Assembly: GCA_963845755.1 (NCBI GenBank)
Contig: CAWJTV010000027.1
Span: forward strand, 192,001 to 256,000
Source of the DNA: an uncultured Planctomycetota bacterium
GTDB taxonomy: Bacteria > Planctomycetota > Planctomycetia > Isosphaerales > Isosphaeraceae
Direction: 5' to 3'
Length of the DNA: 64,000 bases
A model generated the notes under the pieces. The model did not search any database, was not told where the DNA came from, and saw only the letters and a list, made by a program, of their open reading frames with translations. The translations under genes and the position numbers were made by a program. Below are positions 35,587 through 55,558 of the stretch, piece after piece. Each line of letters starts with the position of its first letter. Within the stretch, counting starts at the first letter, position 1.

Positions 35587-35660
35587 TTTCTTGCCAACGT
35601 AGTATACTGTCAGGCGGTGAGGGTTGGGAAAGCGCCGGGGACATCGCGTGCTGCGGGAGG

Positions 35661-38600
35661 ATGGCCGTGGGTTGGAACGCGCTCGTAGTGCTGGCCGTGG
35701 TTGGGTTCGGGGAACCCGCGCCCGCGCGGGATCGACGACGGAGCCGGCCGCCTCGCCGGTCGAATTCAACCGCGACATCCGACCGATCTTGTCGGACACC
35801 TGTTATCCGTGTCACGGCCCCGACTCGGCCCGGCGCAAGGCCAACCTGCGGTTCGATCAGGAATCGTCGGCCCGCGCCGATCGGGACGGCGTCCGCGCAA
35901 TCGTCCCGAGTGATCTCGATGCCAGCGAGCTCTATCAACGGATCACCGCCGAGGACGTCGACCGGCACATGCCGCCGGCAAAATCCGGCAAGTCGCTCGA
36001 TGCGAAGCAGATCAATCTGATCCGTCGATGGATCGCCGAGGGGGCGAAGTGGCAGCCGCACTGGGCCTTTATTCCCCCGAGGCAGCCCGCGGCCCCGCTT
36101 ATCCAGCACCAAGCCTGGGTGCGCAATCCGATCGATGCCTTCATCGTCGCGCGGCTGGAACGCGCGGGGCTCGCGCCGTCGCCCGAGGCGGGGCGGGGCA
36201 TCTTGCTCCGGCGCGTGACGCTCGACCTGACCGGCCTGCCGCCGAGTCGCGCCGAGCTCGCGGCGTTCGAGGGCGACACCGATCCGAACGCCTATGAGAA
36301 GGCCGTCGATCGCCTGCTGGCCTCGCCCCGATTCGGCGAGCGGATGGCGATCCGCTGGCTCAACGCCGCGCGTTACGCCGACACCAACGGCTATCAGACC
36401 GACGCGCCGCGGTTCATGTGGCGATGGCGCGACTGGGTCATCGACGCCTATAACCGCGGCATGCCGTTCGACCGGTTCACGATCGAGCAACTGGCCGGCG
36501 ACCTGTTTCCCGTCGCCACGCTCGACCAGAAGATCGCCACCGGCTTCAACCGCAACCACCGCGGCAACGCCGAGGGCGGGATCATCCCCGAGGAATACGC
36601 GGTCGAGTACGTCGTCGATCGGGTCGACACCACCGCGACCGTATGGCTGGGCCTGACGGTCGGCTGCGCCCGATGCCATAGCCACAAGTTCGACCCGATC
36701 TCGCAGGAAGACTATTATCGCCTCTTCGCCTTCTTCAACAACGTCCCCGAGAACGGGCGGGCGCTCAAGTACGGCAATTCGCCGCCGACCATCGCGGCAC
36801 CCACTCGCAGCCAGCAAGAACAGCTCGACGCACTCCGGCGCAGGCTGGCGGACAAGGAACAGCAGGTCCGAGCCCGAGAGCCGGCGATCGCCGCGGCCCA
36901 GGCCGTCTGGGAGACGTCGATCCTCGGACGTTCGGCATTCGACGACCTCCGGGACGATCACCTCGTCGTTCATCTCGGCTTCGACGAGGATTGCGAGGCC
37001 ACGGGATTGGCCGGGCCCAGGCCGCATTTCCGCGAGGGCCGAGCCCACTTCACGCCCGGTCCGGTGGGATCGGCGATCGCGCTCGACGGCCGCGGTTATC
37101 TCGATGTCGGGAATGTCGCCGCCTTCGGATTCTACGACAAGTTCACGCTCGCCGCGTGGATCAAGCCCGAGGGCGCGCGCGGCGGAGTCATCATCTCGCG
37201 GATGGTCGAGGAATCCCAGGGCGAGGGTTACAGCGTCGTCCTCGACCGGGGCAAGATCCAGGTCAACCTGGTCAAGCGCTGGCTGGATGACGCGATCCGC
37301 GTCGAGACGAAGGCCGCGGTCACACCCGGCGCCTGGACGCACGTCGCGGTCACTTATGACGGCTCGCGAGTTGCCGGCGGGATCAAGATCACTCTCAATG
37401 GTCAGCCCTTGCTATTCACCGTACTTCTGGATGAGTTGAATCAATCGTTCCAGACGAAGGAGCCGTTGCGGATCGGGGCCGGAGGGGGGCCCGGGAATCG
37501 ATTCCCGGGTGCGATCGATGAGGCGAGCGTCTTCGATCGGGCGCTCGATGCCGACGAGATCTCGGTCCTCGCCACGCGCGAGTCGGTCGCGGAGATCGCC
37601 GCGATTCCGCGCGAACGGCGAACGGGCGGCCAGTCGCGGAAGATCCGTCAGGGCTTCCTGGCGACCGAGGCGCCGGCCTCGATCAAGTTGTCGATGATCG
37701 TGCGCGATTCCGCGCGGGCGGAGCTCGACGAATTGATCGAGCACATTCCCACGACGATGGTGATGGAGGAGATGCCGGCCCCGCGCCCGAGCTACGTCCT
37801 GGTCCGGGGACAATACGATCATCGTGGGCCTCGGGTCGAGGCCGGCGTTCCGAAGACGATCGGGGCCTGGCCCGCGGATCGGAAGCCCGACCGGCTCGGG
37901 CTGGCGCGATGGCTCGTGGACCCGGCCAATCCGCTGTCGGCGCGCGTGGCGGTCAACCGCGACTGGCAGATGCTCTTCGGCAATGGGCTGGTCCGCACCG
38001 TGGAGGACTTCGGCGCGCAGGGGGAGCCCCCGAGTCACCCCGAACTCCTCGACTGGCTGGCGACCGAGCTCGTCCGTTCGGGCTGGGATACCAAGGCGAT
38101 GCTCCGCCTCATCGTCACGAGTGCGACATATCGGCAGTCGTCGCGCGTCACGCCCGAGGGTCTCCGCCACGACCCGGAGAACCGCCTGCTCGCGCGCGGG
38201 CCGAGGCTCCGGCTCCCCGCCGAGATGATTCGCGACCAGGCGTTATCCCTGGCGGGACAACTGGTCGAGCGGGTCGGCGGGCCGTCGGTGAAGCCGTACC
38301 AGCCGCCGGGTTTGTGGAACGAGCTGGCGGACGCCGATTATGTCCAGGACCACGGGCCCGATCTGTATCGCCGGGGACTCTACACGTTCTGGAAGCGGAC
38401 CGTCCCGCCGCCCGCGATGGTGGCCTTCGACGCACCGGGGCGCGAGACGTGCATCGTCCGCGAGGTCCGGACCGATACACCGCTCCAGGCGCTCAATGTC
38501 CTGAATGACGTGACGTTCGTGGAAGCCGCCCGGGCCTTCGCCGAGCGGATCATGAGGGACGTTGAGGCGACGCCCGCAGCCCGGCTCGCCTCGGCCTTTT

Positions 38601-38824
38601 TTGCCGCGACCGCCCGGCGGCCGACGGCCGCGGAGGTGAACATCTTGCTCGCCGGCTTCGAGGACCAGTTGGGCCGATTCCGTCGCGACCCCAAGGCGGC
38701 CGGCGCCCTGATCCGCGCCGGCGAGTCGTTGCCCGACCCGCGGCTCGACCCCTGCGAGCTGGCGGCGTACACCACGGTCGCGCAATTGATCCTCAACCTT
38801 GACGAGACGATCACCAAGGAGTAA
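35661..38824 (+). CDS. Planctomycete cytochrome c / DUF1549 / LamG / DUF1553 protein
   Basis: FNRDIRPILSDTCYPCHG, HWAF, NPIDAF, CARCHSHKFDP, PSHPELLDWLA and LILNLDETITKE. The signal peptide is in a shifted frame from ATG 35661. Confidence 0.93.
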
Positions 38825-38827
38825 CCC

Positions 38828-38946
38828 TTGCCATCGTAGGGTGCTCTGTGAGCACCAATTTGCCATCGTAGGGTGCTCTGTGAGCACCAATTTGCCATCG
38901 TAGGGTGCTCTGTGAGCACCAATTTGCCATCGTAGGGTGCACCAAT
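38828..38946 (+). repeat. Tandem REP array, 32-bp unit x3 plus one internally deleted copy
   Basis: TTGCCATC-GTAG-GGTGCTC-TGT-GAGCACC-AAT, with GTAG at 38836, 38868, 38900 and 38932. Confidence 0.95.
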
Positions 38947-38963
38947 TTTTGATTGTCATTCCT

Positions 38964-39533
38964 ATGTCAGATTATCGCCGCTATTTCGCTCCCGGTGGTT
39001 CGTTCTTTTTCACAGTCGTGACGCAAGGGCGCGCCGCGATACTGACCGTCCCCGATGCCAGAGCGATCCTTCACGAAGCTTTCGCGGAATGCCGGCGGCG
39101 CTGGTCGTTCCGGATGGACGCGAACGTTCTTCTCCCGGAGCACCTTCATGCAATCTGGTCTCTTCCCCGAGGAGACGACTGTTACCCGCTGCGATGGGCT
39201 TTCATCAAGAAGGAGTTCACCAAAAGATGGCTACAAACGGGTGGAAGCGAAAAACCAGTCGGTCCTGAGAGAAGGGGACGCCGACGGCGAGGTGTCTGGC
39301 AACCGCGCTATTGGGAACATCTCATTCGCGATGAGGATGATTTTGAACGACATATGGAATACATCCATTACAACCCTGTCAAACATGGACTTGTGGAATG
39401 CCCTCGAGATTGGCCATTCTCCTCTTTCCATAGGTGGGTCCGGCTCGGAGCCTATCATCCGGATTGGGGTTGTGGCTGTCGCGATGCACAGATATTCCGA
39501 TTCGACGACATTGAAAGAACCGCGATGGAATGA
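38964..39533 (+). CDS. rayT: REP-associated tyrosine transposase (RAYT/TnpA-REP, Y1 HUH)
   Basis: YRR..GGSFFFTVVT, HUH motif LPEHLHAIW, WQPRYWEHLIRD, catalytic YIHYNPVKHGL and WPFSSF. Confidence 0.92.
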   Translation: MSDYRRYFAPGGSFFFTVVTQGRAAILTVPDARAILHEAFAECRRRWSFRMDANVLLPEHLHAIWSLPRGDDCYPLRWAFIKKEFTKRWLQTGGSEKPVGPERRGRRRRGVWQPRYWEHLIRDEDDFERHMEYIHYNPVKHGLVECPRDWPFSSFHRWVRLGAYHPDWGCGCRDAQIFRFDDIERTAME

Positions 39534-39540
39534 AGACGAC

Positions 39541-39813
39541 TACGAGAGGATCGGTGCTCACAGAGCACCCTACGAGAGGATCGGTGCTCACAGAGCACCC
39601 TACGAGAGGATCGGTGCTCACAGAGCACCCTACGAGAGGATCGGTGCTCACAGAGCACCCTACGAGAGGATCGGTGCTCACAGAGCACCCTACGAGAGGA
39701 TCGGTGCTCACAGAGCACCCTACGAGAGGATCGGTGCTCACAGAGCACCCTACGAGAGGATCGGTGCTCACAGAGCACCCTACGAGAGGATCGGTGCTCA
39801 CAGAGCACCCTAC
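39541..39813 (-). repeat. Tandem REP array, 30-bp unit x9, inverted relative to the left array
   Basis: Nine identical TACGAGAGGATCGGTGCTCACAGAGCACCC units, containing the reverse complement of the same 21-bp REP. Confidence 0.97.
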
Positions 39814-39839
39814 AAGAGGATCACCAAGGAGTAACCGCT

Positions 39840-41302
39840 GTGAGCCCGCTCGTCGAACGACTCCAACTCCAGACGCGCCGGCACTTCTTCGGCCGGGCCA
39901 GCACGGGCCTGGGGACGATCGCGCTGGCCTCGCTGTTCAATGGCAGCCTCGACGCCGCCGAGGGAGGGCCGAATCGATCGGGGGCCGGAGTGGACGGTTT
40001 CCCCAACTTCGCACCCAAGGCCAAGCGGGTGATCTATCTGTTCCAGTCGGGCGCACCCTCGCAGATGGACCTGTTCGACGAGAAACCCGTGCTCCCGCGC
40101 CTCCAGGGTACCGAGTTGCCGGACTCGATCCGGATGGGTCAGCGGCTGACGGGCATGACCTCGCGTCAGGATCGGTTCCCGGTCGCGGCGAGCCGGTTTC
40201 GGTTCGCCCGTCATGGTCAGAGCGGAGCGGCGGTCAGCGACTTGCTGCCTTACACCGCGAGCGTGGTCGATGAGCTTTGCTTCATCAAGTCGATGCACAC
40301 CGAGGCGATCAATCACGACCCCGCCGTCACCTTCTTCCAGACCGGGGCCCAGCTTGCCGGCCGGCCCAGCATCGGCGCCTGGATCTCTTACGGCCTGGGG
40401 AGCGAGACCCACGAGCTGCCCGCGTTCGTCGTCATGATTTCCCAGGGCTCGGGGAACCCCAACGATCAGCCGCTCTACGACCGGCTGTGGGGGAGCGGGT
40501 TCCTGCCGACCACCTATCAAGGGATCAAGTTCCGCTCGCAGGGCGACCCGGTACTGTATCTCTCGGATCCGCCCGGCCTGTCGTCCGCGGCGCGCCGGCG
40601 GATGCTCGACGACCTGGCCCGGCTCGATACGCTGAATCATCGGACCTTCGGCGATCCGGAGATCCTCACGCGGATCGCCCAGTATGAGATGGCGTACCGG
40701 ATGCAGACCTCGGTACCCGAGCTGACCGATCTCTCCGGCGAGCCCGACTCGGTCTTTCAACTCTATGGCCCCGACGCGCCCGGCCCGGGACCTATGCCGC
40801 CAACTGCCTGCTGGCGCGGCGCCTGGCCGAGCGGGGCGTGCGCTTCATCCAGCTCTTCCACCGCGGCTGGGACCAGCACACGCACCTGCCCAAGCAGATC
40901 GCCGGCCAGTGCCGCGATACCGACCAAGCCTCTGCGGCCCTGGTGCGCGATCTCAAACAGCGCGGGATGCTCGAGGAGACGTTGGTCGTCTGGGGCGGCG
41001 AGTTCGGCCGGACCGTCTATTGCCAGGGCCGCTTGACCGCCGAGGACTACGGCCGCGACCATCATCCCCGCTGCTTCACCGTCTGGCTGGCCGGCGGGGG
41101 CATCCAGCCCGGCATCACCCACGGCGCGACCGACGACTACGGGTACAACGTCGTCCAGGACCCGGTCCACGTCCACGACCTGCACGCCACGATCCTGCAT
41201 TGCCTGGGCATCGAGCACACCAAGCTGACCGTCAAGTATCAGGGGAGGCATCACCGACTGACCGACGTGCACGGTACGGTGGTGAAGACGATCCTGGCGT
41301 GA
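39840..41302 (+). CDS. DUF1501 domain protein, frameshift near 40785
   Basis: TRRHFF Tat motif, [27 protein letters not shown] and GGEFGRT..GRDHHP. Confidence 0.92.
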
Positions 41303-41362: not shown

Positions 41363-41662
41363 TCAATAATAATATCGGGCCTGGAGAAACTCGACGCGGT
41401 CGCCTTTGATGAGGTAGACGAGGCGATGCTCTCCCGCAATCCGCCGGGACCACGTACCGGCCATCTCATGCTTCAGCGGCTCGGGTTTGCCTAGACCGGT
41501 GAACGGCTCACGGAGCGTAGCTTCGACCAGCTCCAGGACGCGGAAGGCGATTCGGCGGTCAGTCTCGATCCTGAAGCGCAGGTCCTCGCGAAACCTCGAA
41601 TTGAATTCAGCGGCGAGGGGGCCACGCGGTGGTTTCTTCGGTGGCCCATCAGGTTTCTTCAA
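41363..41662 (-). CDS. yoeB: Txe/YoeB family toxin
   Basis: PFTGLGKPEPLKH..WSRRI..EHRLVY..QARYYY. Probable TTG start overlaps the antitoxin end. Confidence 0.9.
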   Translation of the reverse strand: MKKPDGPPKKPPRGPLAAEFNSRFREDLRFRIETDRRIAFRVLELVEATLREPFTGLGKPEPLKHEMAGTWSRRIAGEHRLVYLIKGDRVEFLQARYYY

Positions 41663-41933
41663 GGCCGAACTCCCGGCGAAGGTCCTCCACCGTTTCCGGG
41701 GGAAGATTCCGGCTTCGGGCTTCCGCGAGAGCCTCCAAGAGCCGTTGAGCATTCTTGGGAGAGCGGAGCAAGTGGGCCGTCTCCAGCAAGCCGCGCAGTT
41801 CATCGGCGGCGATCAGCATGACATCCTCGGCACCTCGCCGGTGAATGATGATGGGCTCTCGCGAAGAGCTCGCCTCATCGCAGAGGGCCGCGAGATGGGC
41901 ACGCGCGTGGCTGTAGGTTGTCTCGGTCGGCAT
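41649..41933 (-). CDS. yefM: Phd/YefM family antitoxin
   Basis: TYSHARAHLAALCD..IIIHRRG..LLETAHLLRSPKNAQRL. Confidence 0.92.
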   Translation of the reverse strand: MPTETTYSHARAHLAALCDEASSSREPIIIHRRGAEDVMLIAADELRGLLETAHLLRSPKNAQRLLEALAEARSRNLPPETVEDLRREFGLEET

Positions 41934-41948
41934 AGAAGGTCCTCCGGT

Positions 41949-41971
41949 ATATTGTACAGGAATATTGTACA
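41949..41971. promoter_or_regulatory. Putative YefM-YoeB autoregulatory operator
   Basis: Two ATATTGTACA copies with TGTACA palindromic cores (41953-58, 41966-71) just upstream of yefM. Confidence 0.7.
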
Positions 41972-42060
41972 AGCTGGGACCGCCATCTCAAGCTCTCATC
42001 AATGCCGGCTTCGCGAGAGAATTCATCACCGTCGAGTCGGCCTCAGCGACCAAGGTCCGA

Positions 42061-55490: not shown

Positions 55491-55558
55491 CTGGTAGGGT
55501 GCGCCGAGAGCACCGGGGGCGGGGCTTGCGCTTCGGTGCTCACGGCGCACCCTACCAG
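55491..55558. repeat. REP doublet (REPIN-like) closely related to the RAYT-flanking REP
   Basis: GTAGGGTGCGCCGAGAGCACC (55494-514) and inverse GGTGCTCACGGCGCACCCTAC (55535-55), between convergent genes. Confidence 0.85.

Follow-up and report, generated by a model that had tools for sequence, protein, structure and literature searches.

The window analysed here, a continuous stretch of 64,000 nucleotides from an uncultured planctomycete of the family Isosphaeraceae, carries a gene of the RAYT family lodged between two protein-coding genes. Its protein domains and the named relatives of the RAYT also point to a planctomycete host. The locus consists, in order, of a DUF1553 gene, an 18-mer, 9 nt, an array of 3.5 × 32 bp, an open reading frame of 189 amino acids, an inverted array of 9.4 × 30 bp, 5 nt, the 18-mer again, 3 nt and the GTG codon of a DUF1501 gene (Table 1). 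Full 21-nt REPs lie on the forward strand at 38836, 38868 and 38900, and nine more lie on the reverse strand from 39553 to 39813. The REP stem is a perfect 7 bp closed by a loop of 3 nt, GTAG is outermost at both ends of the cassette, and folding gives the 7-bp stem at each end a z-score of about -3. Array coordinates, REP positions and family match thus bear out the first-pass annotation, which had described a RAYT between inverted tandem REP arrays with GTAG facing outward. Its exact 18-bp duplication is likewise real: the 18-mer has two exact copies in the 14.27-Mb genome, and no additional copies at one mismatch were found across those 14.27 Mb. As had also been noted, the 18-mer holds the last codons and stop of DUF1553 as well as the AAGGAG of DUF1501, which stands 8 nt ahead of the GTG start inside the right copy. 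The first 4 nt of the right copy double as part of a 30-bp array unit and the target matches that unit at 10 of 11 nt, so the length of the duplication is 14–25 bp depending on the placement of the joins. The claim that neither gene is damaged holds insofar as both genes keep their ends, but DUF1501 lacks 1 nt near 40778 relative to two orthologues, far from the insertion and likely through a long-read error. A YefM-YoeB toxin-antitoxin pair lies on the minus strand at 41363–41972 of the window, convergent on the DUF1501 gene.

Table 1. Features of the RAYT cassette and its target junction, in window positions
Feature	Position	Strand	Remark
DUF1553 gene (PSCyt1-PSCyt2-LamG3-PSD1)	35624..38824	+	upstream partner, intact; start codon predicted
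Target stretch, 10/11 nt identical to right-array unit	38802..38812	+	candidate microhomology for right join
Left copy of 18-bp duplication	38809..38826	+	gives DUF1553 its last codons and stop
Left cassette end, 9 nt ahead of first GTAG, CT first	38827..38835	+	
Left tandem array, 3.5 × 32 bp, 3 full REPs and 1 half copy	38828..38940	+	units 100% identical
RAYT / TnpA-REP gene, 189 aa	38964..39533	+	H60-L-H62, Y133, WQ..WEH motif, 54.7% GC
Right tandem array, 9.4 × 30 bp, nine REPs	39540..39822	-	units 99% identical
Right cassette end, 5 nt outside last GTAG, CT first on REP-bearing strand	39814..39818	-	
Right copy of 18-bp duplication	39819..39836	+	likely DUF1501 ribosome-binding site at 39826–39831
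DUF1501 gene	39840..41302	+	downstream partner; 1-nt deletion near 40778

The open reading frame is intact, scores 179.7 bits against NF047646 (cut-off 80) and aligns with Escherichia coli TnpA-REP (PDB 4ER8) at a phmmer E of 2e-40, including the HLH and YIHYNP motifs; no Pfam match was obtained at E 0.001. Its GC content is 54.7% vs 67–68% in the adjoining genes, a deficit of about 13 points that reaches at least 10 points in only 6 of 98 high-GC loci. The sequence WQPRYWEH contains the E100-H101 motif of Quentin subclass 2.2 (Bertels group 2), at which subclasses 2.5 and 2.7, as far as the available description goes, have D instead; EH is found in 229 of the 247 surveyed RAYT proteins. The long bulged REP stem of subclass 2.2 is replaced here by a perfect 7-bp stem, and we therefore leave the protein without a subclass.

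The cognate REP occurs 87 times exactly and 163 times at up to two mismatches, in 99 clusters; most copies form inverted doublets, many of them 44–45 nt apart. The RAYT itself is single-copy, and a search of the genome for further copies with other flanking duplications therefore returned none. A second RAYT (G000:C41:452856-453374) shares 47% identity, has its own REP type and an internal stop, and shows no flanking duplication. There is no sign of a close plasmid-borne relative among 23 plasmid records, all below 60% identity and many chromosome-derived or chromosome-sized. Around the other REP clusters of the genome we found duplications in 0 of 116 (117 clusters in all, 350-nt flanks), and as a loose random control gave 4/300, this absence is real at that sensitivity. 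Several REP copies belong to larger repeats: a doublet lies within an element of about 205–225 bp whose copies are 97–100% identical (G000:C1:196750-196960 and at least nine other places), and a shorter doublet element of 120–125 nt with terminal inverted repeats is found at C18:93003, C29:451466, C11:398619, C36:316056 and C41:486936. Many REP copies of this genome may have been spread by MITEs, not by the RAYT. A RAYT-free 30-bp tandem array of the same REP, with four forward units and one reverse, is located at G000:C1:60085-60235, and a diverged doublet of the cognate REP lies in the window at 55494–55555, 16 kb from the cassette.

From likely orthologous DUF1553-DUF1501 junctions (83% and 77% identity) the cassette is missing, as the first-pass annotation had expected; their spacer measures 9 nt, with the same purine-rich gene end before GTG as here, and in silico removal of the cassette leaves an 8-nt spacer. 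Since the closest orthologous junctions lack it, the REP-RAYT-REP unit is an insertion, and these empty sites bear out that it entered a tightly coupled operon junction as a whole. The best DUF1553 matches in relatives are accompanied by a RAYT match in none of 29 other loci. In a genome of the same genus (G001), the junction, 92% identical, holds an unrelated 133-nt insert without a REP (locus L002), so that this junction took two independent insertions. The L002 insert (G001:C4) is AT-rich, has mirror repeats with a period of 7 nt and contains a ribosome-binding site of its own. G001 contains 191 copies of the REP while lacking the cassette at the junction, and the REP family is therefore older than the insertion. 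A cognate RAYT was not found in G001 (87% complete) with this protein at E 1e-30; the RAYT family model has 16 distant matches there, including two pairs of equal open-frame length. The two closest RAYTs (74% in one, 66% in the other) have the identical REP at other loci (G081, G113), without a duplication. The insertion looks young, its proposed recency being supported by the exact 18-mer and the arrays of 99–100% identity.

A structure of this kind in a long-read metagenome bin could in principle be an assembly artefact. The bin does carry indel errors, such as the 1-nt deletion in DUF1501. The sequencing runs listed comprise five of DNA (shares 0.05–0.12) and none of RNA, and neither a contig bridging the locus nor one with an empty site was found; one comparable case, L035, straddles an N gap. 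However, a short-read contig is exact over 39805–39960, although only 14 nt of it lie on the REP side of the join, another covers 38929–39199 with no difference, and equal architecture is found in independent assemblies, some of them of 1–2 contigs. We regard an artefact as highly improbable.

To place the duplication among related loci, we gathered 335 RAYT loci from the best-scoring matches (best 80 of 173 and best 80 of 234 in two scans). These formed 319 groups, of which 265 had 300-nt flanks and 211 had REP words on both sides, in forward orientation upstream and in reverse downstream. A uniform test for duplications was positive at 28 of the 211 loci of this best-match set, compared with 0/600 cross-pairs and 1/600 random 750-bp gaps; the cross-pair control used one REP pair per case, where real loci were allowed several. 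The 28 matches were curated by hand and 18 were removed as REP/REPIN modules, 12 of them judged in context and six (L058, L072, L106, L125, L225 and L300) from end sequences alone. Host-DNA duplications against the outer REPs accordingly occur at 10 of the 211 non-redundant loci of this hand-curated best-match set: L031 (the present locus), L045, L067, L104, L155, L190, L229, L239, L291 and L354. Those of L104, L190 and L239 also contain a REP. The duplications measure 18–196 bp and are mostly copies of the 3' end of a gene pointing at the cassette; about 95% of the surveyed cassettes are without one. Like duplications lie on short contigs outside the test (L075, L171 and L210), while L035 (92 bp) was excluded from the counts for the N gap between REP and duplication, and L170, L196 and L259 as too distant from the REPs or too diverged. 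At L075 and L171 the adjoining gene has a TAG stop that shares bases with the GTAG foot of the REP. The duplications of L291 and L354 are found in genomes of 1–2 contigs, and duplication-bearing RAYTs show no clustering on the RAYT tree, over which they are scattered.

Empty orthologous sites were recovered for L354 (L368), L190 (L385, L387) and L067 (L398–L400); the L190 gene we take to be murA. No such site was established for L291, where four relatives hold the gene without a RAYT but differ in the upstream DNA, or for L280, which is matched on its left flank only. The footprint at our locus is thus one example of a recurring kind. We found no description of long duplications around REPtrons in the open literature as far as its accessible text extends (PMC2817692, PMC3333891, PMC3733652, PMC6006769, 10.1101/2021.07.10.451892, PMC3686654, PMC8266576, PMC5581495, PMC3116915, 10.1101/2024.07.17.603846, PMC3337134, PMC10288648); captured gene fragments are also the subject of supplementary figures (PMC3333891 Fig. 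S7, PMC2817692 file 4), which may be relevant to the novelty.

Whole cassettes also change places. RAYT genes 96–99% identical, with unrelated flanks and identity ending at or near the REPs, occur in three near-closed genomes: two in G095, four in G328 and two in G245. The left ends of the G328 copies vary and run about 200 nt past the REP. G146 holds a RAYT pair at 94%, and G173 and G044 have a common 99% cassette at different sites. No empty sites were recovered for the G328 and G095 copies, for which the relatives are too distant. One cassette of G044 (L284) breaks a gene that is intact in G173, the two being about 90% identical and perhaps paralogous; some 55–60 target nucleotides are missing, the left join shows 6/7-nt microhomology and the right join is at CT. 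Near-identical duplicates (at least 95%) make up 8 of 175 loci from whole-genome searches. This rate is itself not exceptional, since the text available from Bertels et al. gives a similar range of 2–7.7% overall (PMC5581495); what is added is that the duplicated unit is bounded by REPs. Methylobacter-related cassettes (L112, L113, L119, L121, L131, L134, L204 and L212) are 84–93% identical, with similarity mostly ending near the cassette limits, which suggests that cassettes often relocate in gammaproteobacteria as well. The proposed mobility of whole RAYT cassettes is supported by the near-identical copies that relatives carry at unrelated sites.

The ends of these units share a preference for CT. 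Right ends common to several copies lie at CT in G095, G328 and G146; those of a metagenome trio lie at CA or CT. CT comes first in 5 of 13 duplications (P 1e-4 to 8e-4, post hoc), the other eight starting differently, and AG comes last in 4 of 12 (P 0.002, post hoc), once as part of a TAG stop. Both cassette ends at our locus are CT-first on the REP-bearing strand, and the right join falls within the 10/11-nt stretch that the target shares with the array unit. Joining strictly at C^T would cost one extra mismatch per end. Sense-strand CT, both-strand CT and a T-start of the element were each tried as a single junction rule, and none fits every case. TnpA-REP is described as cleaving at CT, and one relative at CA as well (PMC8266576); in the accessible parts of the published work, C^T cutting occurs on both sides of a REP and at a distance, with resolution by any attacking 3'-OH (PMC3333891, PMC8266576). 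The CT at cassette ends and duplication starts may be an indirect sign of a putative REP-dependent, single-strand cleavage by the present RAYT as well.

These signals could also reflect a true staggered insertion, in which the RAYT nicks both target strands at two C^T sites and joins both element strands, leaving a target-site duplication of variable length bounded by CT...AG. The duplications of L171 and L354 do run CT...AG, the AG ends noted above agree with it, and the inverted REPs at both ends make two-strand symmetry available. The duplication at the present locus, however, has no CT start and is not CT...AG-bounded, a synonymous bias between diverged copies (see below) and the deletion at L284 would be unexpected, and TnpA-REP, in the portion of PMC8266576 available, acts on single strands and disregards the inverted REP. 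This route is very doubtful.

The reading that we moderately favour is that the REP-RAYT-REP unit entered the junction in one piece as single-stranded DNA, likely through the action of its own RAYT, and that its two ends were joined separately, leaving 14–25 target bases on both sides. The RAYT would cut C^T sites a few bases beyond the outermost REPs, like E. coli TnpA-REP in vitro, and free the cassette as single-stranded DNA, the ends of which, unlike those of IS608, would not be joined into one nick. One join would be a RAYT strand transfer—either a 5'-phosphotyrosine resolved by a free 3'-OH, or the 3'-OH of the element transferred onto a target C^T—and the other would form via microhomology or homology, as the position of the right join at this locus may illustrate. 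A second join upstream of the first would duplicate the target, and one downstream would delete it. A captured gene end could then permit homing between strains, and later local RAYT activity may account for the growth of the 32-bp and the 30-bp array, in line with the published model of BIME amplification. Preservation of the operon, which the first-pass annotation had attributed to the insertion route, is best read as a filter of selection and not a property of the enzyme: selection would retain events that copy the stop codon and ribosome-binding site and spare both genes. The proposal of an unusual RAYT route that duplicates the target stands as regards insertion and recurrence, whereas the RAYT as maker of the footprint is something we infer; nor is a usual target-site duplication established, given the spread of lengths, the one deletion, the many cassettes without duplication and diverged copies that resemble two functional alleles. 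The absence of duplications at the 116 other REP clusters and at most surveyed cassettes, together with the single copy of the RAYT here, weakens this explanation.

Such allelic pairs would arise by capture and homing. The cassette would have landed elsewhere, in another strain or a sister chromosome, without a duplication; the RAYT would have excised it with the 3' end of the neighbouring gene, and that piece would have guided integration into an empty allele, the two copies being the donor and recipient alleles. Eight diverged coding duplications display 31 synonymous to 16 non-synonymous changes, where neutral decay of one copy would give 38–47% synonymous (P 1e-4 to 8e-3 by transition bias), although without L075 the bias falls to 18:12 (P 0.014 to 0.13). 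At L354, two informative sites assign the left copy to G230, and the right copy with its flank to the empty site of G377. From the bias and the L354 pattern we infer that some duplications are two alleles, probably joining donor and recipient, and not simple target-site duplications. The low GC content of the RAYT relative to its flanks is consistent with such an origin, and the available text of PMC3333891 proposes that REP units capture pieces of flanking genes. At the present locus, by contrast, the two copies do not differ, and among the 29 other loci there was no donor that carries the cassette at this site but lacks a duplication. RecA needs more than about 20 bp, and 18 bp would be short for recombination of that type. 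For our locus we consider capture and homing unlikely, if still the strongest of the competing accounts.

A still less probable source is host repair: microhomology-driven template switching would have mended a break or a stalled fork at the hairpins, and the RAYT gene would have been carried along as a passenger between REPs. Variable duplication or deletion is typical of break repair, and two joins, the right one here and the left one of L284, show microhomology. Repair alone, however, leaves unexplained the fixed CT right ends of multi-copy cassettes, the CT start of 5 of the 13 duplications, and why in this genome the RAYT-bearing cluster alone, 1 of 117, has a duplication.

Separate joining of the ends of a REP-RAYT-REP unit, as we favour it, can be set against several known systems. 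REPtrons, represented by E. coli TnpA-REP, share the Y1-HUH enzyme with its WQ..WEH guide-binding motif, GTAG-footed hairpins on both sides, genome-wide REP doublets and tandem REP arrays. The present unit accordingly has the REPtron attributes of a RAYT-family Y1-HUH protein with catalytic Tyr, inverted GT[AG]G-footed hairpins, an abundant cognate REP and a single copy per REP type. It differs in its short perfect stem from the bulged REPs of subclass 2.2, and in being inserted, with near-identical copies at unrelated sites in relatives and some long duplications. In the published picture, as far as it is accessible, the gene keeps to a single locus and is not mobile as a unit, although RAYTs at novel sites by duplication or horizontal gain are noted in PMC3686654. 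The empty sites, the identical REP and a RAYT elsewhere in G081 and G113, and the multi-copy cassettes do not agree with a gene fixed at one locus, and the recurring footprint conflicts with the immobile-REPtron view.

IS200/IS605 elements (IS608, ISDra2) are alike in their related Y1 transposase, terminal hairpins, tetranucleotide guide and single-strand chemistry (PMC8266576, in the text available). By the accessible description, their insertion leaves no larger target duplication (PMC2817692), and their left and right ends differ from each other, whereas here one REP, inverted, stands at both ends and the duplication or deletion is variable. The 18-bp duplication and identical inverted ends thus set the cassette apart from this family, and its HUH enzyme and footprints of 18–196 bp, none or a deletion set it apart from DDE-type insertion sequences with a target-site duplication of fixed length. 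Replitron-1 and some Helitrons of Chlamydomonas reinhardtii are likewise HUH transposons with variable-length target duplications, and their ends carry DNA flanking the parent copy; in the part of the account at hand, the author terms these footprints non-canonical and of unknown cause (PMC10288648). These elements are, however, eukaryotic, with a Rep-class enzyme and direct terminal repeats but no REPs. Finally, BIME/REPIN tandem clusters consist of tandem units with flanking DNA or gene fragments, according to the available portions of PMC3116915, PMC3333891 and PMC2817692, which fits the 30-bp and 32-bp arrays. Those clusters are local amplifications of REP units, whereas here host DNA is duplicated across a whole RAYT cassette.

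Taken more broadly, it appears about evenly balanced whether RAYTs of the E. coli type have remained autonomous transposons in planctomycetes and some other bacteria, such that a REP-RAYT-REP unit jumps, its ends are joined independently to give duplications of 18–200 bp or deletions, and captured gene 3' ends allow homing into the same tight operon junction of other strains. If this is true, the cassettes would record RAYT chemistry in vivo for the first time and would constitute a bacterial HUH element whose duplications are long and variable. In the literature, as far as it could be consulted, both the way in which RAYTs mobilise DNA inside cells and the route by which a gene supposed to be immobile gains new loci and hosts are open questions. 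Filled and empty sites with mapped joins provide concrete substrates and predictions—cutting at CT beyond the outer REP, ends joined independently, and target duplication or deletion—and the survey names genomes with young multi-copy cassettes suited to testing them. Mobility of RAYTs would qualify the view that these enzymes are fully domesticated.
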